The notes: a model not told the origin generated them from the letters alone. Positions 18,662 to 28,054 are shown, counted from the first letter of the stretch. The stretch is 32,000 nt of DNA from a bacterium (GCA_002716355.1 PBAU01000002.1:30001-62000); one strand, 5' to 3'. Program-made: numbers and translations.

Positions 18662-20034
18662 AATATGACTTGGTTGTGATAGGTGCTGGCCCAGGTGGCT
18701 ATGTGTGTGCTTTACGGGCAGCACAACTCGGCTTAAAGGTAGCTGTTGTTGAAAAGAAAAAAGCGGGTGGAACATGTTTGAATGTTGGTTGCATACCATC
18801 TAAAGCTTTATTGGATTCAACAGAAATTTTTTCTGAAATTTCACCAGGGAACGAACATGGAATAGAGGTCAGCAAAGCTAACATTAACTGGTCGACCCTG
18901 CAATCCAGAAGGGAAAAAATTGTTACCCAATTAACAGGTGGTGTTGAATTTCTTTTAAAAAAGGCTAAGGTTGATTATTATCAAGGATTTGCAGATGTGA
19001 AATCTTGTTATACGGTTGTTGTTGGCAGGAATAATCTTGCAACTAAAAATGTTGTTTTGGCCACCGGATCCACACCTGTAGAAATTCCATTTTTGCCATT
19101 TGATGGAGAACATGTTATAAGTTCAACCGAAGCTCTTAATCAATTCAATATACCCAAAAGTCTTATTGTTGTTGGAGGAGGTTATATAGGGTTAGAAATG
19201 GCCAGTGTTTACAGCCGAATCGGAACCCATGTCACAGTAATTGAGATGATGGATCGGATTGTTCCATTGATGGATACAGATATAAGCAAGCAGTTGCAAA
19301 AATCATTAAGAAAACAAGGCATCAAGTTTAAAACATCAACCAAGGTGACCGATTGCAAGAAAACAAAAAATAAAATTATTTTAAATTTAGAAAAAAACAA
19401 AAAAACAAGCACACAGGAGGCTGATCAAGTTCTTGTTGCTGTAGGTCGTCGGCCTAATGCAGGGGGTATTAACCTCAATGCTTTAGGAGTCACAATGGAT
19501 GAGAGGGGGTTTGTTTCTGTAAATCAAAACATGGAAACATCCATACCTGGTATTTATGCCATAGGCGATTTGGTTCCAGGTCCCATGCTTGCACATAAAG
19601 CCAGTGAGGAAGGGGTGGTTGTTGCCGAAAGAATTGCTGGCAAGCAAACAACACTTGACTATAGCTTGATTCCATCTGTAGTTTACACACACCCTGAAGG
19701 CGCTTCTATTGGTAGAACCGCAGATGAGCTTAAAAAAGCCAACGTAGAATTTAAAACAGGTATGTTTCCGTTTTCTGCATCCGGAAGAGCTATGGCTATA
19801 GGTTGTACTGAAGGTTTTGTTAAGGTGTTAGCAGATTCCAAAACCGATAAGGTTTTAGGGGTCCATATATTAGGGCCGAAAGCTTCAGAATTAATATCTG
19901 AAGCAGCAATGGTGATGGGCTTCTGTGGCACTGCTGAAGACATAGGTGTGTTTATTCACGCGCACCCAACACTTTCGGAAGCATTAAAAGAAGCCGCTCT
20001 TGAAGCTTCTGGTCATGGTGCGATTCATACCTAA
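18658..20034 (+). CDS. lpdA: dihydrolipoyl dehydrogenase (E3)
   Basis: FAD motif VVIGAGPGGY, redox disulfide GGTCLNVGCIPSK, NAD motif VVGGGYIGLE, and C-terminal HAHPTLSE. Confidence 0.95.
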   Translation: MKYDLVVIGAGPGGYVCALRAAQLGLKVAVVEKKKAGGTCLNVGCIPSKALLDSTEIFSEISPGNEHGIEVSKANINWSTLQSRREKIVTQLTGGVEFLLKKAKVDYYQGFADVKSCYTVVVGRNNLATKNVVLATGSTPVEIPFLPFDGEHVISSTEALNQFNIPKSLIVVGGGYIGLEMASVYSRIGTHVTVIEMMDRIVPLMDTDISKQLQKSLRKQGIKFKTSTKVTDCKKTKNKIILNLEKNKKTSTQEADQVLVAVGRRPNAGGINLNALGVTMDERGFVSVNQNMETSIPGIYAIGDLVPGPMLAHKASEEGVVVAERIAGKQTTLDYSLIPSVVYTHPEGASIGRTADELKKANVEFKTGMFPFSASGRAMAIGCTEGFVKVLADSKTDKVLGVHILGPKASELISEAAMVMGFCGTAEDIGVFIHAHPTLSEALKEAALEASGHGAIHT

Positions 20035-20044
20035 GGAGAAAACA

Positions 20045-20224
20045 ATGTTTGGATTTATTTTTGCTTTAGGACCAACAGAAATTGCTTTAATTGCAGTTGT
20101 TGTTTTGGTTCTTTTTGGACCCAAAAAAGTTACAGAATTCGCAAGATCTCTAGGAAGAACTAGTGGTGAATTCAAAAAAGGACTTGAAGAGGGTAAAAAG
20201 ACAACAAAAGATAAAGAGGAGTAA
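20045..20224 (+). CDS. tatA: twin-arginine translocase TatA/E family protein
   Basis: MFGFIFALGPTEIALIAVVVLVLFGPKKVTEFARSLGRTSGEFKKG (the LFGPKK hinge is typical). AAGGAG lies 6-7 nt upstream of the ATG at 20045. The track start at 20000 overlaps lpdA. Confidence 0.9.
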   Translation: MFGFIFALGPTEIALIAVVVLVLFGPKKVTEFARSLGRTSGEFKKGLEEGKKTTKDKEE

Positions 20225-20233
20225 AGCTGCTGT

Positions 20234-20944
20234 ATGCAAGACAAAAAAATGCCTCTGTCCGAGCATTTTGCTGATCTGCAAAAAACTTTATTAAACAGTC
20301 TTCTTTATTGTTTTTTTGCCTCTGTTTTGCTGTCCTTTTTTCATAAGGAATTATTAATTGCTTTTCAAAAACCACTAAACAATGTCGGAATTACTGCGTT
20401 AAATGTTTTATCTCCACAAGAGGGGTTCCTCATCCCCATCAAGTTGGTTTTAATGTGTGGTTTAATTGTGGCAACACCTTTGATTGTTAGAGAGGTTACC
20501 TTATTTGCCTGGCCCGCATTAAGGCAAAATGAAAAACAAATACTTCAAACTTTTGTAATCCCAAGTTTTTTAATTGCACTTGTTGCAGCGTTTTTTGCTT
20601 GGCAGGTTTTAATACCAATATCAATTGAATTTCTGCTCAAGGCAACAACAAACAATAACCTACAAGCAACATGGACATTGCAATATTGGTTTGTTTTTGT
20701 TCAATCTATGTTGATTGCCTCTGTGGCTGCTTTTCAACTGCCAATAGTCATGGGGGTTTTAGCTAAATTCGGCTTAATTGACTCACATACGGTCCGGGAA
20801 AAAGGCCCACATGCAATTATTGGGCTATTGATATTATCTGGTTTTATAACCCCTCCAGATGTTGTCACGCAGATCATTATCGCCATACCATTAATCCTTC
20901 TGTTTTATTTCAGTATTTTCATAGTCAAGGCAAACGAGGATTAA
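20234..20944 (+). CDS. tatC: twin-arginine translocase subunit TatC
   Basis: N-terminus MPLSEHFADLQKTLL (TatC-type HL.ELR region). Six hydrophobic segments. ITPPDVVTQ (the conserved P.D..sQ motif). Confidence 0.88.
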   Translation: MQDKKMPLSEHFADLQKTLLNSLLYCFFASVLLSFFHKELLIAFQKPLNNVGITALNVLSPQEGFLIPIKLVLMCGLIVATPLIVREVTLFAWPALRQNEKQILQTFVIPSFLIALVAAFFAWQVLIPISIEFLLKATTNNNLQATWTLQYWFVFVQSMLIASVAAFQLPIVMGVLAKFGLIDSHTVREKGPHAIIGLLILSGFITPPDVVTQIIIAIPLILLFYFSIFIVKANED

Positions 20945-21013
20945 ATCTAAAATTAATTCAGGTTTTTCAATAGAATTAAAAAGTTGTAGATTTGTACAAA
21001 TGGAGGAAAAATT

Positions 21014-23335
21014 ATGGCACGAATAGGTGTTTTTCTTAGCAAAGAGGGAAAAGGTTTAGATCCGCTTAACCTACAAACCATTGCTGACAGATTGGTTGAG
21101 GAAGTGCAGGAGATAAACCATGTTTTTATACATGAAGACCTCAACACAGTTCAAGGTTTGGAAGCAATATCACAAGAGATCAAAAATCAAGATATTGGCT
21201 ATGTTGTTATCGGTTGTGGCTCTATTGATCAAAGGGAAGAGAATATCAGAAAAACATTGAATACAGCTGGCATTAACGAATACCTTTTGGAGGTTGTTAA
21301 TCTTAAAGAAATGGTAGCTAACGTGCATTCAGAAGAGCCCGAGAAAGCCAATGAAAAAGCTTTTCAGCTATTGAAAACAGCAGTTATCAAGGTTGAGCAA
21401 AGTAAACCTTTAGAAAAAACACCAATGAGGGTGGAACAACAAGTTTTAGTTGTTGGCGGCGGTGTTGCAGGCATGACTGCTTCTTTGAGAATTGCAGATG
21501 CTGGCTACAGTGTTGTTTTAGTTGAAAAGTCACCTGCATTAGGTGGAAAAGTTGCCTCTCTCAAAAATCTTTGGCCAAAACTCGAAGAGGCAGATGACTT
21601 AATGAGGAATCTTTCAATCAGTTGTCATCAACATGAAAATATAGTTATTTATGATTATTCAGAAGTTAAATCTATAGACGGAGTTCGTGGGGATTTTGAT
21701 GTTGAAATAGTCAGAAAACCAAGATTTGTTCAAAGTCAAAAAATTGTAAATTTTGAAAAAATTACAGAATCATTAAAAACGGATTTTCCAAATAAGCACA
21801 CCGGAGGCAGGACGGTGAACAAGGTTCTTTATCAACCATACGCAGGCTGTGTCCCACCATTGTTTTTGATAGACCCAGAAAATATAAATCATCCAGATGT
21901 CAAAAAGTTAATCACACTTGTTCCTGATGGAACTGTGAATCAGAACGAAAAGGAAAAAATCGTTCATGAAAAAGCAGGTGCTGTGATTATGGCTTTTGGA
22001 GCTGGGATGATGGATTGTTCTGGCTTAACAAATTTAACTGCTGCAAATAGTGAAAATGTACACAGTGCTAGTGATTTTGAATTTTTGAATTTCAAAAAAG
22101 ACGAAGAAATGTCGTTGTTATGGGTTGCAGATGCAGGAAGCAATGATCCCAAGAACGGTGTTGCTTACGCTTCCGAAGTGCCTTTGATGACCTGTGTCAA
22201 ACAGGCTATTTTTGCTAAAAAAATGTCTAATGGAAAAATTCACACAACAGTTGTTTACTCAGATAGGAGATCCAGAACAAAAGGATATGAAGAATTTATC
22301 AAAACCGCTGAGGAAAAATACCAGGTACAGATGGTTAGAGGCGCTGTTTCAAATGTAACTTCAAAGTCAAACGGGTTGTCTGTCAGCTTGCACGATTTAA
22401 TACAGGGCAAAGAGCAAAAGGTATCAGTTGACAAGGTTGTTTTGGCACAAGAGGTTGTTGCACACGATGATTCACAACATCTAGCAAGTATTGTTGATAT
22501 AGGTCGTGACGAAACAGGCTTTCTTGCTGAAACCCATCCTTCTCTGGAGCCATGTTCAACCAGTAATTCTGGAGTTTTTGTTTGTGGAGACTGTGCGTCT
22601 CCCGGTGATATCAGAGCTGCTGTTTTGACAGCTGAATCAGCAGTTGCTAAAGCTATGGCCGTTTTGGCCCAAAAAACAAGTGAGCCCTACAGGTTAAAAC
22701 AAAAAGATGAGCAACTTGCACGATTTGATGCTCCAGCAAAAGAGGTTTCTCCTGAGAGCTTTCAAACAAATGATGAAGGTGGCATGAATTACACAAGATT
22801 AAATAATGTTTTTGGTAAAACTGAAAGCGGTGTGTCCATACCAGCCTCACCAACCAGAAACATTGAACTTGCTGGTTGGGAGCTTTCTAAGTCAATTGCA
22901 GAAATTGAAAATATTTGGACAGATGCAAAAAATGACAACTGGGAACCAAGAATAACAGGATTTGCATCACAGTATGGTGGTTATCCACTTTTGGAAACAC
23001 TTGGAAGAGAGGAGGTTTCTTATTCATCTTGTTTTAGATTTCTGAGAGTGCGCTCAACAGCACATCTGGATCCACTCCTTGTCCTCAAAAGCTTCTTTAA
23101 TGGTGCAGATGGTGTGTTTATTATTGGTGGACCTTTAGGCAAAGGCAAGTTTCACAACGACAACTACCTTGCAAAAAGAAGATTTAAAGCATTAGAAGGG
23201 GTGCTTGATGCTGGTGGGATTGAGCCAGATAGAGTCAAGATTTTATTTGTAGATTCTCACCAAATTGATGAAGTTGCTGATCAGTTGCAAAAATTCCATA
23301 ATGCTGTCTCTAGCTTAGGCCCTTTAGGTATTTGA
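21014..23335 (+). CDS. HdrA-like FAD flavoprotein fused to a C-terminal MvhD/FlpD-like domain; canonical Fe-S cysteine ligands absent
   Basis: GGAGG lies ~7 nt upstream of the ATG. The bacterial HdrA N-domain pattern is recognisable but Cys-poor: IGVFLSKEGKG replaces IGVFiCHCGxNI, and EVVNLKEMVANVH replaces NIRExCSWVH. The FAD dinucleotide motif VLVVGGGVAGMTASLRIADAGYSVVLVEKSPALGGK and the C-terminal GVFVCGDCASPGDIRAAV are kept. The C-terminal 130 aa align to MvhD (see findings). Confidence 0.75.
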   Translation: MARIGVFLSKEGKGLDPLNLQTIADRLVEEVQEINHVFIHEDLNTVQGLEAISQEIKNQDIGYVVIGCGSIDQREENIRKTLNTAGINEYLLEVVNLKEMVANVHSEEPEKANEKAFQLLKTAVIKVEQSKPLEKTPMRVEQQVLVVGGGVAGMTASLRIADAGYSVVLVEKSPALGGKVASLKNLWPKLEEADDLMRNLSISCHQHENIVIYDYSEVKSIDGVRGDFDVEIVRKPRFVQSQKIVNFEKITESLKTDFPNKHTGGRTVNKVLYQPYAGCVPPLFLIDPENINHPDVKKLITLVPDGTVNQNEKEKIVHEKAGAVIMAFGAGMMDCSGLTNLTAANSENVHSASDFEFLNFKKDEEMSLLWVADAGSNDPKNGVAYASEVPLMTCVKQAIFAKKMSNGKIHTTVVYSDRRSRTKGYEEFIKTAEEKYQVQMVRGAVSNVTSKSNGLSVSLHDLIQGKEQKVSVDKVVLAQEVVAHDDSQHLASIVDIGRDETGFLAETHPSLEPCSTSNSGVFVCGDCASPGDIRAAVLTAESAVAKAMAVLAQKTSEPYRLKQKDEQLARFDAPAKEVSPESFQTNDEGGMNYTRLNNVFGKTESGVSIPASPTRNIELAGWELSKSIAEIENIWTDAKNDNWEPRITGFASQYGGYPLLETLGREEVSYSSCFRFLRVRSTAHLDPLLVLKSFFNGADGVFIIGGPLGKGKFHNDNYLAKRRFKALEGVLDAGGIEPDRVKILFVDSHQIDEVADQLQKFHNAVSSLGPLGI

Positions 23336-23338
23336 AAC

Positions 23339-24232
23339 ATGAATGAAATGAGAATAACAATCCAACGAGAAGCCAGAAGGCTTTTACAGCTGCAAAAAGT
23401 CAGCGTTGTTATAGGTTATGAGGTTGGTCCATACCCTGGCACGACCGCTCCCTGTTTCGCTTTCACCCCAGATGACGCTCAAAGAATTGTTTTCAATAGC
23501 TTTTCGTCTATCAATTTAGCCGTTTATCTTCCAGGCATTACTGGAAATGTTGGCATAGTGGCCACACCTGCAACTGTAAGATCCATCAAAGAGCTCGAAA
23601 AAGACGGCTTGGTGAATCGTAAAAATCTGCATATTATTGGTGTGAAATTTCCAGGAATATTAGATCCTCGACATTTAAATGTTGACAGAGAGAACGAAAA
23701 TACGTTATCAGTCAATGAGCATCCAGAAGCTTTATGGGAGTGGGCACTTCATGATCTTTACGAGGAGCCAGAAGATTATGACATACTTGTTGAGCCCAGG
23801 TGGATGAATGACCTCAGTAAAGCCGGCAAACTAAAAAAACCCACCCCAAACCGTACCAGCGTTGAAAGGTTAGAGCAGATGACTCATCACGAAAGAAGGC
23901 TATACTGGATGAGTTATTTTGAAAAACATAGGCATTCAGACCATAATAAAAATTTATTTCCTTCCACTTATGCGGGAGGAGACCATTTAGAAAAGTTTAA
24001 ATATATCAAATCTGCATATAGCTCGAACGAGCTTTTTTACGAACATCTTTCATGGGTTTACCAATCGATGGGTCGAGCTTCTGGCTTCGATCTCTCAGAC
24101 CTTACAGAGGACATGAATCAAATACCCCTTTCAACAATTCGAGCTTGGGCTGCTAGAGAGTTTAGAAAAAATTTTAATTACAGGCCAGGTGGGGAAGAGC
24201 CAAATCCATTACTGAAAAAGGAAAACATATAA
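23339..24232 (+). CDS. FrhB/FdhB-like protein, cysteine-depleted (one Cys in 297 aa); function unknown
   Basis: N-terminal half: ARRLLQLQKVSVVIGYEV........NVGIVATPATVRSIKELEKDGLVNRKNLHIIGVKFPG. This resembles the F420-hydrogenase-beta-like pattern (..vd.vig ... vavvGtPCqi.al..l......l.iGl.C.G) with both Cys substituted. It starts 3 nt after the HdrA-like stop. I do not recognise the C-terminal half. Confidence 0.55.
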   Translation: MNEMRITIQREARRLLQLQKVSVVIGYEVGPYPGTTAPCFAFTPDDAQRIVFNSFSSINLAVYLPGITGNVGIVATPATVRSIKELEKDGLVNRKNLHIIGVKFPGILDPRHLNVDRENENTLSVNEHPEALWEWALHDLYEEPEDYDILVEPRWMNDLSKAGKLKKPTPNRTSVERLEQMTHHERRLYWMSYFEKHRHSDHNKNLFPSTYAGGDHLEKFKYIKSAYSSNELFYEHLSWVYQSMGRASGFDLSDLTEDMNQIPLSTIRAWAAREFRKNFNYRPGGEEPNPLLKKENI

Positions 24233-24233
24233 C

Positions 24234-25256
24234 ATGAGCGACTATATTTTGTCAAAAGCTAAATTGAAATATTGGTTAGAGGATGTCAGAAAACGAAATG
24301 AACTATGGGCACCCGTTGGATCCAAAGGCGCTGTAAGTTATTTGAAAAATCCAAAAGGTGAAAATGTTGCAACAGATTTTACAAATAGTTTGGATTGTCC
24401 AAAGTATATATTTTGCCCACAGCAAGATGCCATATGCAACTATGAGATACAAGGAAGAGGCAAGGTTGCTATTGAGGAAGTTGAGCTCGATGTGACTCCT
24501 AGAGTTGTATTTGGCTTACGGCCACCAGACATTAGAGGCATCGAAATTCTCGATGCTTACCTGTTGAAAGATCAAATTGATCGGAGATACGAGGCAAGGC
24601 GAAAAAATACAATAAATATTTGTCTTGGTTACCATAACCCACCTCCTTGCTGTTTCGCAGAGTCTGTAGGTGTCGATCTTTTTCCCAAGAGTGGCTCTGA
24701 CATTTTGTTAACTGATATTGGTAGGAGTTATTATGTTGAAACACTTTCTGAAAAAGGAGATAGCCTGATCTCGGAACATTTCAATGAAGCTGATGATATT
24801 GTTCGAAATGAAGCCTGGGATATACAGAAGGGAAGTGAAGGAAAAACAAATTTTGATTTAAATTTGAATCGTTGGCAGGATTTCACTGATACTGAAATTT
24901 ACACTTTGCCGTATTGGGATGAAATTTATTTGGGCATTATTGCTGATTCTGTCGCAACCAGGTATTTTTACTCAGGAACTTATTTTAAGATTGTTGATGT
25001 TAACAGTGGAAACAAGGGCACAAGGTATAAAACCTGGACAACAATGTATTCTCCAGGCTTTTCAACATTGGCAAATGGTTATGACTACAAGCCAAGCCTC
25101 AAGGAAAAATTTAAAGATTGGATATTAGAAATGTTTCATTTTTTTCCAAAAAGACATGGTTTTATTGGCTGTTCAGGTGCGCACAGGTGCATTGCAGGCA
25201 TGACCACCAAGCATGACCTGAGAAAAATTATTTCTAATGTGGACTTTGGAATATGA
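24234..25256 (+). CDS. sulfhydrogenase beta-subunit (HydB) / AsrA-like protein with degenerate Fe-S motifs
   Basis: The N-terminal two thirds match the HydB/AsrA pattern: ELWAPV, CPKYIFCPQQD (PPKkfffP), RVVFGLRPPDIRGIEILD (iiFGvr.CDi.gl.iLD), YEARRKNT, CLGYHNPPPCCFAESVG (C....CFC.s.G) and DILLTDIGRSYYVETLSEKG. The two C-terminal CxxCxxCxxxCP ferredoxin motifs are absent. Confidence 0.7.
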   Translation: MSDYILSKAKLKYWLEDVRKRNELWAPVGSKGAVSYLKNPKGENVATDFTNSLDCPKYIFCPQQDAICNYEIQGRGKVAIEEVELDVTPRVVFGLRPPDIRGIEILDAYLLKDQIDRRYEARRKNTINICLGYHNPPPCCFAESVGVDLFPKSGSDILLTDIGRSYYVETLSEKGDSLISEHFNEADDIVRNEAWDIQKGSEGKTNFDLNLNRWQDFTDTEIYTLPYWDEIYLGIIADSVATRYFYSGTYFKIVDVNSGNKGTRYKTWTTMYSPGFSTLANGYDYKPSLKEKFKDWILEMFHFFPKRHGFIGCSGAHRCIAGMTTKHDLRKIISNVDFGI

Positions 25257-26029
25257 ATTTAGTACCAAAGATAGCAAATATAAAAAATACAGAACGGGAT
25301 GGTCGTTTAGGGTCAATATCATTTGATTTTGATGGGGACCTGAAGGCCGGACAGGTTTTCAAGATAGGGACCTTTGGAAAAGGAGAAACAACTGCTTGGG
25401 TCATAGATGCGGAAGATAAAACCGTAACCGTTTCGTTTCTGGATAACAACCCTGTCACACATAAAATCATGCTCCTTCCCACAGATGAATGCATTACTGT
25501 AAGAGGGCCATTTGGCAATGGTTTTTCACTTTTAGATGAAAGAAATATTTTATTAATTAGTCAAGATGATGGAATATTAAGCCAAAAGAAACTTATTAAT
25601 GATTTGCTCCAAAATGGTAATCAGGTCAGCTTGCTCCACTTCACCTCTTTTCCAAAAGATATATTTATGAGCTCTTCACTTAAAAAAGCTGTATCAGATG
25701 ACTCTCCTATCAATGGTGAAATTATCGATATGACAAAAAAAGGACCACAGGATTTAGATACGTTTATCAAATCTTGCATCAAGGCAAGTTACACCTCCGG
25801 AATAAACGCAGTGGCTCTATCAGGCAATGAGAATTTTCAGCAGTCTGTGTCGAGGGTTCTGGAGAAAACAATGATTAAAGATAAAAGCATACAAATTTTA
25901 TTTAATCGTAATTTTGTTTCAGGAATGGGTTGGTCTAACAAGGATCTTTACGGTACCACAAACATATGGAAAGAAGGGCCAGTATTTACATTAGATCAGG
26001 TTCGAAGATTCCCAGGTGTATTCATTTAA
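25253..26029 (+). CDS. sulfhydrogenase gamma (HydG) / AsrB / PyrK-like FNR-fold protein lacking nucleotide-binding and 2Fe-2S motifs
   Basis: LKAGQVFKIGTFGKGE (f.pGQf..l..pg.ge), ITVRGPFGNGFSL (l.vrGPyGnGF) and WKEGPVFTLDQV (C.dGPVF) place it in the family. LLISQDDGILSQ replaces llvaGGtGiaP, and NFVSGMGWSNKDLYG replaces M.CG.G.C..C. ATGA overlap with the upstream gene. Confidence 0.7.
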   Translation: MNLVPKIANIKNTERDGRLGSISFDFDGDLKAGQVFKIGTFGKGETTAWVIDAEDKTVTVSFLDNNPVTHKIMLLPTDECITVRGPFGNGFSLLDERNILLISQDDGILSQKKLINDLLQNGNQVSLLHFTSFPKDIFMSSSLKKAVSDDSPINGEIIDMTKKGPQDLDTFIKSCIKASYTSGINAVALSGNENFQQSVSRVLEKTMIKDKSIQILFNRNFVSGMGWSNKDLYGTTNIWKEGPVFTLDQVRRFPGVFI

Positions 26030-26795
26030 TACTGCTATTTTTTGACAGCATCATTCCTAGTTCAGGATCAATGTCTTCGGCCCGAAAGCCATCAGGTATC
26101 CTTTCCAGCGTGCCATCAGGCACAAAACCCCTCAGTAGCTTTTTGGCATTCTTCCTTCTTTGAGAGAATATTTTTTTATTTAATTGCAAATATTGATATG
26201 AATATTGAAAATCCTCCGTTTTTTCCTTATTCGTTAAGGTGATAATCGCACTGTCAATTTTTGGTTTTGGAAAGAATGCATTTTTTGAAATTTTTTTTTC
26301 AATCTTACATGAATAAAAAAATTGCAATGGCCCAGAAAGAAGACCGTATGATTTAGAGCTGGTTTGAGAGCAGATGCGCTCGGCAACTTCTTTTTGAACG
26401 GTGAATATGGCGTTTTTTATCTTTTCTGGCCATCTTGCAACCAGCCATAAAATTCTCCCTGAAAGATAGTAAGGCAAATTGCCTACCAGCATGCCATTAT
26501 TTTCAGCATTTTCAGGTTGCCATTTTCGAACATCCGTCTCGATGTTGATTGATGGAAATTTGTTTTTTAAAAAGGAATTGAGGTGTTCGTCAACCTCATA
26601 AACAGTTAGTCTATTTCTATAGGATATTTTTTCTGTTAGGAAGCCCAGGCCACCGCCAATTTCAATTGTCCAGTCACTTTCTTTTTCTTTAATTATGTTT
26701 GACAAAAAATCAAGATTTGACTTATTTGTCATGAAGTTTTGACCACGATGTTTTTTGGGTGGATGATTACGGAAGTAATCAATCGCTAGCGACAT
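26022..26795 (-). CDS. rsmA: 16S rRNA (adenine1518/1519-N6)-dimethyltransferase
   Basis: HRGQNFMTNKSNLDFL, SAM motif IEIGGGLGFLTEKI, GNLPYYLS and FFPKPKIDSAIITL. Its 3' end overlaps the convergent upstream gene by 8 bp. Confidence 0.9.
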   Translation of the reverse strand: MSLAIDYFRNHPPKKHRGQNFMTNKSNLDFLSNIIKEKESDWTIEIGGGLGFLTEKISYRNRLTVYEVDEHLNSFLKNKFPSINIETDVRKWQPENAENNGMLVGNLPYYLSGRILWLVARWPEKIKNAIFTVQKEVAERICSQTSSKSYGLLSGPLQFFYSCKIEKKISKNAFFPKPKIDSAIITLTNKEKTEDFQYSYQYLQLNKKIFSQRRKNAKKLLRGFVPDGTLERIPDGFRAEDIDPELGMMLSKNSSIK

Positions 26796-26819
26796 TAAAC
26801 TTTTTTCAGATTGGCTTAT

Positions 26820-27041
26820 TTAGACTTCCTCGTAGAGGATTAATGCACCCGATACAAACATTGGGGTCCTAACATCATCTTCTTTTGACGCATCCATGGT
26901 TACACTAGAGCCATATTTGATGTCAATAATTTTTACTTTAGATTTGTTTGCCTTTAACCACTCGTTGATTTCTCGATCAAGCGGGGGTGTTCTATAGCTC
27001 CCTAAGCTAGATTCCATAAAATGTTTTACTTTCATAAGCAA
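26820..27041 (-). CDS. small hypothetical protein (pattern reminiscent of the Cse60/DUF2758 family)
   Basis: 73 aa. The pattern MKVKHFMES....LDREINEWLKANKSKVKIIDIKYGSSV.....MFVSGALILYEE recalls small Cse60-like proteins. This is from memory only. The real start may be the third Met (27035). Confidence 0.4.
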   Translation of the reverse strand: MLMKVKHFMESSLGSYRTPPLDREINEWLKANKSKVKIIDIKYGSSVTMDASKEDDVRTPMFVSGALILYEEV

Positions 27042-27130
27042 ATCTTAATTCCAAAAACAAACAAACCTAACCCAAGAACAGCAGATTCAAAAATTAATAT
27101 CTAATTATTCAGATATAAAATTAAAAATAT

Positions 27131-28054
27131 ATGAATCGTTTAAAAAGCATAAATCTACGTTTTTTGTTGATGCCCTTTGTTCTGGCTTTTATTTTTGCTT
27201 TTGAGGATATTGACACTAAAGAGAAGTCAAGCGAGGAGTTATGGGTTGTAAATTTTTTAGCTGAAGGAGTGGTTTTACCACCCGGTCAGATAGATTTGCC
27301 AAAAATAACTATCGATTACACAAAAACTGACCATGCCAAAATTGCTAAGAATCTTTTGGGTGCAGACATAGAGGCAGAAACCTCTGTCGGTTTAACCAGA
27401 GTTATCGATCAGGGTTTTCAAACATATGCAACCGAGGACGGCCGAGAATTATTGGTTTTTCCTCATGGTGGAATCACATTTAACCATCCTTTTGCCGGGG
27501 TGCATGAGTTGTTCCCATTAACCCGCACACAGGCAGAAAGTGTTCTGGATATTTTTAATAACAATTTTAATTATTTTCCAGAAGATGCCTCACTGGTCAA
27601 TACAGGAGAAATTAAACATCCAGAATATCAGTCTTTCAACAACAGTCAAGGATTACCGTTTGGTTACATTTATGAATATGGGCGTTATTTTAAAAATGTT
27701 CTCATTAAAAATGATGTAGTCAGGGCTTTAGTGGTTGGCGGAAGAGTTTGGGAATTTTCATTTTCCTGGGGCGATCAGCCTGTTGAGATTGAAGACACTG
27801 AGGCAACAATAATCCCAGCATGGTCTGCAGTTAAGGATGCCATCGAGTATGCGTATAGGAATTTTTACGCTGGAGAATATTACGCAGATGTATTTGTTAC
27901 CAAGGTTCAACTTGTTTATACTTTTGATGGCCTACAGGAGGCATGGAAAAAGGATGAACCAAAAAGATTAGTTCCGGCATGGGTGGTCCAGATAAATAAA
28001 TCGAATGAAATTATCTTAGAAGCTTTCACCGGTCAAGTTATTCCCATTTATTAA
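27131..28054 (+). CDS. hypothetical exported or membrane-anchored protein, possibly with a PepSY-like C-terminal domain
   Basis: N-terminal hydrophobic segment LRFLLMPFVLAFIFAF. The C-terminal segment IIPAWSAVKDAIEYAY....VTKVQLVY......LVPAWVVQINKSNEIILEAFTGQVI fits the PepSY-type pattern (..A...a....v..v.l......paW.v......v.vdA.tG.v). Confidence 0.5.
   Translation: MNRLKSINLRFLLMPFVLAFIFAFEDIDTKEKSSEELWVVNFLAEGVVLPPGQIDLPKITIDYTKTDHAKIAKNLLGADIEAETSVGLTRVIDQGFQTYATEDGRELLVFPHGGITFNHPFAGVHELFPLTRTQAESVLDIFNNNFNYFPEDASLVNTGEIKHPEYQSFNNSQGLPFGYIYEYGRYFKNVLIKNDVVRALVVGGRVWEFSFSWGDQPVEIEDTEATIIPAWSAVKDAIEYAYRNFYAGEYYADVFVTKVQLVYTFDGLQEAWKKDEPKRLVPAWVVQINKSNEIILEAFTGQVIPIY

Follow-up and report, generated by a model that had tools for sequence, protein, structure and literature searches.

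The stretch of DNA analyzed here, hereafter the window, comprises 32,000 nucleotides (nt) from a bacterium (GCA_002716355.1 PBAU01000002.1:30001-62000), and our subject is a gene within it that encodes a relative of the flavoprotein HdrA fused to an MvhD domain. This HdrA-MvhD fusion gene occupies 21014..23335 on the + strand, with GGAGG 8-9 nt 5′ of its ATG, and its 773-codon open reading frame (ORF; 773 amino acids, aa) has no internal stop in translation. An earlier note on this DNA, made from the sequence alone, had described an HdrA-like protein that keeps its site for flavin adenine dinucleotide (FAD) and lacks its iron-sulfur (Fe-S) ligands. It placed the end of the feature at 22939, which is not the end of the gene: the interval covers the first 642 of 773 codons, and the ORF runs to 23335.

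All domains lie on the + strand. The N-terminal HdrA domain (aa 1-135, 21014..21418) is followed by the first part of a thioredoxin-reductase-like FAD domain (aa 136-236, 21419..21721), with Pfam FAD/NAD Rossmann matches at 143-229, and by the relic of the inserted 2x[4Fe-4S] ferredoxin domain (aa 237-314, 21722..21955). The second part of the thioredoxin-reductase-like domain (aa 315-555, 21956..22678) carries E356, K396, and the FAD motif G525-D526...P530-x-D532 (numbering via the alignment with 5ODC). The relic of the C-terminal 2x[4Fe-4S] ferredoxin domain (aa 556-640, 22679..22933) leads into the MvhD/FlpD domain (aa 641-773, 22934..23332), which PF02662 matches at aa 647-769 over profile positions 1-123 of 123 (expectation value E = 5e-24).

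Homology and fold

A phmmer search against all PDB chains returned the HdrA of the methanogen Mvh-Hdr complex as top match (5ODC_A, E = 3e-68, query residues 46-553), followed by four more HdrA chain sequences (8RVV, 8RVU, 9SFI, and 7BKB), and MvhD chains matched residues 642-771 (5ODC_D, E = 2e-18). The best NCBIfam model was HdrA2 (NF040770), the HdrA-MvhD fusion type, which aligned residues 3-771 of the protein with positions 1-774 of the 777 in the profile. Its score of 389 bits is below the curated cut-off of 1100, as are those of the other NCBIfam HdrA models (276 and 255 bits; cut-offs 1300-1400). As the earlier note supposed, the best match is HdrA and not a flavoprotein family that never had clusters.

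The modelled fold agrees. An AlphaFold model was computed from 45 aligned rows, canonical HdrAs among them (predicted local distance difference test, pLDDT, 88; predicted template-modelling score, pTM, 0.79), and in Foldseek it matched full-length HdrA chains (643-653 residues) with a target template-modelling score (TM) of 0.82-0.89 over 651-654 columns, and the core of the minimal homologue sHdrA with TM = 0.89 for the target. Within this model pLDDT is 78-94 in the N-domain, 79-92 in the inserted ferredoxin domain, and 60-90 in the C-terminal one. Because the AlphaFold alignment contained canonical HdrAs, the alignment-free ESM Atlas model of the exact sequence served as an independent check on the fold (pTM = 0.77); it matched a 777-aa Fer4 + Pyr_redox_2 (HdrA-MvhD) cluster with TM = 0.89 over 759 residues.

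By sequence and by modelled fold, then, the ORF is a true HdrA homologue fused to MvhD, of the HdrA2 or "type Ia" architecture. Descent from HdrA is indicated by full-length similarity of sequence and fold, and by its grouping with cluster-bearing HdrA relatives in trees at a Shimodaira-Hasegawa-like (SH) support of 1.0. All five ancestral modules (N-domain, thioredoxin-reductase-like FAD domain, inserted ferredoxin domain, C-terminal ferredoxin domain, and MvhD) are kept as folds. The earlier note had regarded the inserted ferredoxin domains as missing, which did not hold: aa 237-314 and 556-640 persist as Cys-free relics that match canonical HdrA column for column, the models fold them as in HdrA, and they remain under constraint (ratio of nonsynonymous to synonymous substitution rates, omega, 0.04-0.09).

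Loss of the iron-sulfur ligands

Canonical HdrAs have 27 Cys columns, and the window protein has Cys at none of them (alignment A3; 45 rows, 35 of them canonical HdrAs; a Cys column has Cys in at least 60% of the canonical rows). The HdrA of 5ODC reportedly holds six [4Fe-4S] clusters, the ligands of which correspond to these 27 conserved columns. Cysteine is also scarce in the protein as a whole (9 Cys in 773 aa, 1.2%, vs. a median of 3.6% in the relatives fetched), the motif CxxCxxCxxxC is absent from its 773 aa, and careful alignment brought out no canonical Fe-S motif in it.

Every module is affected. The five Cys columns of the N-domain read S9, E11, N44, G69, and V101, and the six at the flavin-proximal site read E192, D195, D373, A386, P390, and L391, of which D373, A386, P390, and L391 align with C386, C399, C403, and C404 of 5ODC; the FPTxDCSxC segment has become WPKLEEADD. 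The eight columns of the inserted ferredoxin domain are filled with hydrophobic residues (I, F, I, L and I, V, L, V), and those of the C-terminal ferredoxin domain with A, D, A, S and K, S, S, S. In the latter, both motif-ending prolines are kept (P580 and P613), and the stretch ESGxSxPASPTRNxEL is invariant between members that are 50% identical. In the MvhD domain the five Cys columns that supply the [2Fe-2S] ligands, aligned with fused canonical rows, read S652, G655, S681, G706, and G711. The motifs that the earlier note had quoted as Cys-replaced N-terminal signatures lie exactly where it put them (IGVFLSKEGKG at aa 4-14, DLNTVQG at 42-48, and NLKEMVANVH at 96-105), as does WPKLEEADDLMR (187-198), which it gave for the flavin-proximal segment.

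Recoding, including selenocysteine, was ruled out as an explanation, given that the ORF is free of in-frame stops and that ordinary sense codons stand at the former Cys columns. One could also suppose that clusters are still bound through ligands other than Cys, for which E192 and D373, conserved acidic residues at the former flavin-proximal site, might speak. However, most of these Cys have given way to Ile, Leu, Val, Phe, Ala, Gly, Ser, Lys, or Pro, no site offers even two plausible ligands, and 32/32 ligand columns have changed, and we regard cluster binding of this kind as very improbable. Judged from these replacements, the window protein cannot bind the ancestral clusters, namely the six [4Fe-4S] of HdrA and the [2Fe-2S] of MvhD.

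Two comparisons place the loss in context. Between P0002 and P0007, which are 51% identical, 17/27 of the former Cys columns hold the same residue, so most replacements predate the split of the two genera that carry the Cys-free form. Three HdrA-MvhD fusions (P0126, P0185, and P0222) have the full HdrA Cys set and a Cys-free MvhD domain, and a cluster-free MvhD is therefore not unique to the clade.

The FAD site

The fate of other conserved residues is different. Of 124 columns at least 85% conserved in canonical HdrA, 26 are Cys, none of which is kept, and 98 are not, of which 61 are kept (that is, kept in at least 5/6 clade members); many of the changes in the remaining 37 are conservative. 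The first FAD segment (aa 136-236) is the most conserved segment of the protein (98% identity to L002, the locus of the 91%-identical orthologue, and 61% to L007). The dinucleotide fold (aa 146-179) and the C-terminal FAD motif GVFVCGDCASPGD (520-532), both named by the earlier note, are found in the translation. The dinucleotide signature is wholly kept (G148, G150, G153, E171, G177, G178, G329, G520, G525, P530, and D532), which gives the protein GxGxxG, the acidic residue at the end of beta-2, GG, and the C-terminal G...P.D motif.

Two further residues bear on the redox chemistry of the flavin. In the alignment with 5ODC, K396 corresponds to K409 and E356 to E356, and neither residue varies within the clade or among its nearest relatives, the intermediates described below. 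In HdrA, K409 hydrogen-bonds the flavin N5 and is positioned by E356, and the pair has been proposed as a mark of bifurcating HdrAs (PMC6405883, PMC13514486, PMC12054007). These residues are kept alongside changes at T328, R377, K510, and K531. Since the binding signature and the two flavin-redox residues are conserved, the window protein most likely still binds FAD, and by the same residues the FAD pocket is the sole preserved cofactor site. In its core, therefore, the earlier note was borne out: an HdrA relative with its FAD motifs and Lys/Glu pair conserved and its Fe-S ligands gone.

Right after E356 (window 22082-22090 region), about 14 residues are deleted in the window's genus, and with them the loop SGPTxGxxxRPSDG present in the sister genus, the intermediates, and canonical HdrAs. 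This genus also has a C-G-D-C motif at the 'GD' turn of the FAD site (aa 524-527, window 22583-22594). D526 in this motif is specific to the clade and missing from canonical HdrAs, and C524-x-x-C527 occurs within the clade only in the window's genus, the sister genus having A524; the same CxxC spacing occurs in the canonical P0059. A new flavin-disulfide center made of C514, C524, and C527 was considered and rejected, because C524 is absent from the sister genus and C527 is common in canonical HdrAs, and C514, reasoned from the fold, is a whole beta-strand away from C527. Nor does the protein resemble a flavoprotein disulfide reductase of the thioredoxin reductase/glutathione reductase type, as it has neither a conserved redox-active CxxC/CxxxxC nor an NAD(P)H motif in the second domain.

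Intermediates and the order of loss

An intermediate state is preserved in the genome G007, from another family of the same phylum. Its HdrA (L008:8758-10728, 657 aa) has 12/27 Cys and lies in an operon (L008 5525-11539, - strand) with the order tatC, hdrA, a separate mvhD that overlaps the hdrA stop region, and then genes of 306, 340, and 281 aa. The N-domain and flavin-proximal ligands are gone, and LYPHMEDAED stands where canonical HdrAs have FPTxDCSxC. The 12 Cys are exactly those that would ligate both C-terminal clusters and one of the two in the inserted domain (motif 1 supplying its last Cys and motif 2 its first three), and the CxxCxxCxxxCP and CGxGxCxxC motifs are intact in the three partner proteins. 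On contigs C1 and C32, G007 further carries canonical hdrA at two loci, together with a CCG-bearing hdrB.

The 12-Cys pattern recurs in seven metagenomic proteins (P0272-P0276, P0278, and P0135), P0278 having one extra, nonligand Cys, and P0167 has only the eight C-terminal Cys, no inserted domain, and a fused Cys-free MvhD; operon context for the intermediates comes from G007 alone. The 12-Cys subfamily and P0167 are the nearest relatives of the window protein (31-33% identity). All of them share with it the motif L[WY]PxLE.A in place of FPTxDCSxC and the loss of the N-domain and flavin-proximal clusters, but the subfamily keeps one inserted-domain cluster and two C-terminal clusters, whereas P0167 keeps only the C-terminal two. 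In trees (FastTree with LG, 52 rows; SH-like support, midpoint root only) nine intermediates and six Cys-free proteins form one group against 37 canonical rows (SH 100), and the grouping remains at SH 1.0 after every Cys-common column is removed. The stem of the Cys-free clade is long (0.77-0.9 substitutions per site).

An intermediate with 12/27 Cys in the same operon implies that the loss was stepwise, and on this comparison the window protein arose through cluster-poor intermediates. The N-domain and flavin-proximal clusters are said to form the input path from MvhD to the flavin in 5ODC. If so, the loss began with the input branch and reached the output branches later.

Selection and distribution

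We measured selection by dN/dS (Nei-Gojobori) against the 91%-identical orthologue in L002. The HdrA-MvhD gene gave 0.040 (dS = 1.2), close to lipoamide dehydrogenase (E3; 0.039) and TatC (0.031), and the three genes downstream of it gave 0.021-0.036. By domain, MvhD is the most constrained (omega = 0.013), followed by the N-domain and the first FAD segment (0.020 each), the C-terminal ferredoxin relic (0.040), the second thioredoxin-reductase-like segment (0.068), and the inserted ferredoxin relic (0.089). Every domain of HdrA-MvhD is maintained by selection, and none is drifting.

The Cys-free form is rare. In a word-indexed search of 5.8 billion proteins it was represented by five clusters (91, 78, 78, 76, and 50% identity), and all other matches were at most about 30% identical and had Fer4 domains. 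An exhaustive HMMER pass over 1.84 billion representatives returned only P0005 and the fragment P0123 as clade members, and among these representatives the Cys-free form is confined to this clade. Six loci fetched from the GTDB species set are from uncultured marine metagenome-assembled genomes, one of them belonging to a marine-series run and another bearing a NIOZ-UU isolate name. In that set the phylum has eight species in two families, all of which carry the gene: the Cys-free form is found in 7/8 species, in two genera with genomes of 1.0-1.4 Mb (71-87% completeness), and the eighth, G007 (2.1 Mb), carries the related, intermediate form. Haem-copper oxidase is present in all four genomes tested (G000, G005, G006, and G007). 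Horizontal acquisition was considered and is unsupported, given a uniform G+C content (~38%), synteny across the phylum, and the presence of the gene in 8/8 species.

Massive ligand loss together with a long clade stem might be what one expects of a decaying relic, a pseudogene in the making, or of an assembly artifact. Yet the frame is intact in eight independent genomes, dN/dS equals that of housekeeping neighbors at a dS of 1.2 with constraint on every domain, and the genes are tightly packed or overlapping, with a good Shine-Dalgarno sequence and the same uniform G+C. As far as sequence data can refute decay or artifact, they do so here, and we give this explanation almost no credence.

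Operon partners and genome context

Three genes follow HdrA-MvhD on the + strand. The first encodes a 297-aa partner (23339..24232, dN/dS = 0.021) with no Pfam or NCBIfam match; both of its CxxCxxCxxxCP motifs have been lost, and its 306-aa orthologue in G007 has two. The second, a 340-aa HydB/ShyB/AsrA-like partner (24234..25256; NF040829, E = 7e-19; dN/dS = 0.032), is without both ferredoxin motifs, which are present in the G007 orthologue. The third is a 258-aa PyrK/AsrB/HydG-like partner (25253..26029; NCBIfam matches; dN/dS = 0.036) that keeps RGPFGNGF, has SQDDGILS at the position of GGxGxxP, and has lost the Cys of its C-terminal 2Fe-2S loop, where the G007 orthologue has CGFGICGGC. The four operon genes are packed, with gaps of 3 and 1 nt and then a 4-nt overlap. 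The rRNA adenine dimethylase gene (26022-26795, - strand) is convergent with the operon and shares 8 nt with the 3′ end of its last gene. A promoter and terminator scan of 19900-27200 gave counts equal to those of shuffled sequence.

Homologues of HdrB and HdrC are encoded elsewhere in the window's genome, G000. PF02754 (the HdrB CCG domain) has no match in G000, and reading this as absence of HdrB proved a false negative for homology, since TIGR03288 finds a Cys-free HdrB-like gene (316 aa, G000:C9:19899-20798, - strand, E = 6e-17) without CCG motifs. Overlapping its start is a gene for a weakly HdrC-like protein of 186 aa (- strand, within L013 1483-2990, which equals G000:C9, about 19881-21388; TIGR03290, E = 5.5e-4), the top PDB matches of which are HdrC chains at a weak E of 0.05-0.14. 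The two genes form a translationally coupled pair at a locus separate from the HdrA operon. SufBD is found in all four genomes tested, and in the window's genome the motifs are intact in SdhB-like, ETF-QO-like, dicluster ferredoxin, and ferredoxin I proteins, which indicates that the loss is specific to this system and not a general loss of Fe-S proteins.

On the 5′ side lie two genes of the twin-arginine translocation (Tat) system, both on the + strand. The start of tatA (20045..20224) is probably an internal Met of the ORF 20000-20224, and its product has a hydrophobic helix followed by FGPKK; L007 has a tatA-like small gene at the same place. The tatC gene (20234..20944; PF00902, E = 3.9e-46) encodes the sole TatC of the genome. 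Across the family, tatA-tatC stands immediately 5′ of the HdrA-like gene, and in the sister family tatC does (window 20000-20944; L007 7058-8004; L008 10817-11539). G000, G005, G006, and G007 each have one TatC, adjoining the HdrA-like gene, and in L007 the stop of tatC and the start of hdrA share 4 nt. This conserved order, the single TatC per genome, and the overlap would suit a flavin-based redox sensor or a Tat-linked accessory. Gene order within one small lineage is, however, weak evidence, and none of the four proteins has a twin-arginine signal by reading of the sequences. Moreover, we know of no Tat accessory protein that belongs to the HdrA family, and a sensor or Tat-linked role seems improbable to us.

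At L003 4262-5647, pyruvate/2-oxoacid dehydrogenase E2 is split into ORFs of 153 and 255 aa, compared with 412 aa in the window, which could be a frameshift or an assembly error.

Discussion

We lean, with moderate confidence, toward reading the window protein as a functional descendant of HdrA2-type proteins that is maintained by selection, is free of ligands, and probably serves as the flavin-carrying core of an Fe-S-free complex, with direct exchange of electrons by the flavin as the preferred mode of action. In a protein devoid of clusters the flavin is left unwired and the two one-electron branches are missing, which rules out both bifurcation and long-range electron transfer. The other members of the complex would most likely be the Flx-like products of the three remaining operon genes, and perhaps also the Cys-free HdrB/HdrC-like pair from the separate locus. 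Small molecules bound by the protein would trade electrons directly with the flavin, one as two-electron donor and another, such as O2, quinone, or disulfide, as acceptor, and the vacated flavin-proximal cluster site with its conserved E192 and D373 is a candidate access route. As a precedent, a direct reaction of F420H2 at the flavin has been proposed for type Ia HdrA/HdrA2 (PMC12054007, PMC5296606).

Several observations count against this reading. The confident AlphaFold model depends on an alignment with canonical HdrAs, and with the six clade sequences alone pLDDT falls to 44. In canonical HdrA the flavin is reached only through the clusters. Some residues near the cofactor differ from canonical HdrA (T328F, within the ATG motif, R377N, K510S, and K531G), and the second Rossmann-like domain, which by direct reading has WVADAGSND, has not regained a GxGxxG-type NAD(P)H motif. 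Finally, cofactor motifs are gone from every partner, the HdrB-like catalytic subunit and the FlxA-like NAD(P)H/FAD subunit among them, which fits a nonredox assembly equally well.

Such an assembly would be a noncatalytic scaffold, or pseudoenzyme, derived from Flx/Hdr and retained as a whole because its role is structural, regulatory, or chaperone-like; the FAD, or its ADP part alone, would be a structural ligand, or the pocket empty, and there would be no redox turnover. This possibility is a serious one, though we consider it unlikely on balance. It accounts for the loss, in the 297-, 340-, and 258-aa partners, of motifs that their G007 orthologues keep, for the lack of CCG motifs in the HdrB-like protein, for the strongest constraint falling on MvhD, an adaptor domain, and for the conservation of ferredoxin relics that hold no cofactor. 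Cofactor-free structural subunits have also been proposed earlier in Hdr gene clusters and for FhcB (PMC12054007). It sits less well with K396 and E356, which act on the redox chemistry of the flavin and are not described as FAD-binding (PMC12054007) and yet are invariant across members down to 50% identity and in the intermediates. The dinucleotide-binding signature is likewise complete, and the clade has even added the GD motif (D526). The earlier note predicted a "flavin-only enzyme": ligand loss and the retained FAD motifs agree with its first part, whereas "enzyme" is a matter of inference, to which the loss of cofactor ligands in the partners makes a noncatalytic role a serious rival.

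A more far-reaching and rather speculative proposal is that the whole Flx/Hdr bifurcating machine (HdrA-MvhD, the three Flx-like subunits, and the HdrB/HdrC-like proteins) was converted stepwise to an iron-free single-flavin complex with a new function in a very small, oxygen-respiring marine phylum of small genomes. That function could be one of a cluster-independent two-electron oxidoreductase or a flavin redox sensor, and the complex may be linked to the Tat export genes, which are translationally coupled to it in one genus.

The closest known counterpart is HdrA2 of Methanosarcina acetivorans HdrA2B2C2 (PMC5296606, PMC12054007), which has the same domain order (773 aa here vs. 777 profile positions) and the K409 and E356 equivalents that the window protein keeps. 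The M. acetivorans hdrA2 gene is apart from the hdrB2C2 locus (PMC5296606), and the window genome shows a similar separation. HdrA2, however, carries FAD, four [4Fe-4S], and one [2Fe-2S], about 20 Fe per protein (PMC5296606), as opposed to 0/32 ligand Cys in the window protein, and the host of the latter is an aerobic marine bacterium. The operon parts also correspond to FlxABCD-HdrABC of Desulfovibrio vulgaris (Ramos et al. 2015, cited in PMC5296606), to the extent of the description given there: an MvhD-type module (FlxD), two homologues of Fe-S subunits, and a PyrK/AsrB-type subunit lie beside HdrA, with HdrB/C homologues in the genome. In that description the D. vulgaris complex is an Fe-S-rich NADH dehydrogenase/heterodisulfide reductase of anaerobes, whereas the window operon is without Fe-S and NAD(P)H motifs.

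The best solved relative is HdrA of MvhAGD-HdrABC from Methanothermococcus thermolithotrophicus (5ODC; related 8RVU and 7BKB), with which the four HdrA domains and the FAD-site residues align; MvhD is a separate subunit there and is fused in the window protein. Another HdrA-derived flavoprotein with fewer clusters in an aerobe is sHdrA of Hyphomicrobium denitrificans (6TJR), the minimal HdrA of sulfur oxidizers. Its thioredoxin-reductase-like core is the part that superposes with the window model, and the sequence match is weak (E = 1.4e-11, aa 374-549 only). It consists of a core of ~340 aa without the N-domain, ferredoxin, and MvhD modules, and reportedly keeps one [4Fe-4S] cluster, whereas the window protein keeps the modules with their ligands erased.

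By descent and architecture, the window protein is a type Ia HdrA. It does not qualify as a functional HdrA, having no ligands, scores below the curated cut-offs, and no CCG-bearing HdrB partner. It should not be annotated as a heterodisulfide reductase or as a "hydrogenase iron-sulfur subunit", the name given to a relative in one public record. Published classifications of HdrA describe cluster domains as often gained or lost (PMC12054007), and our searches of the literature library available to us found no description of a full-length HdrA with all domains and no ligands.

HdrA is the flavin core of a main class of electron-bifurcating enzymes, in which the clusters are regarded as integral to the mechanism. 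The window protein is a natural "cluster-knockout" of HdrA with a bifurcation-type flavin environment, which lets one ask what the Lys/Glu pair does on a lone flavin, and the graded series of 27, 12, 8, and 0 Cys gives the order of cluster loss, with the MvhD-side input branch first. It also presents a multi-subunit redox complex that stays under strong selection after losing its metal cofactors in small-genome, aerobic marine bacteria, for which oxygen sensitivity and the cost of iron are plausible drivers. If the flavin is active, this would be a new kind of HdrA-derived enzyme; if it is inactive, the assembly would be among the larger pseudoenzyme assemblies known in bacteria.

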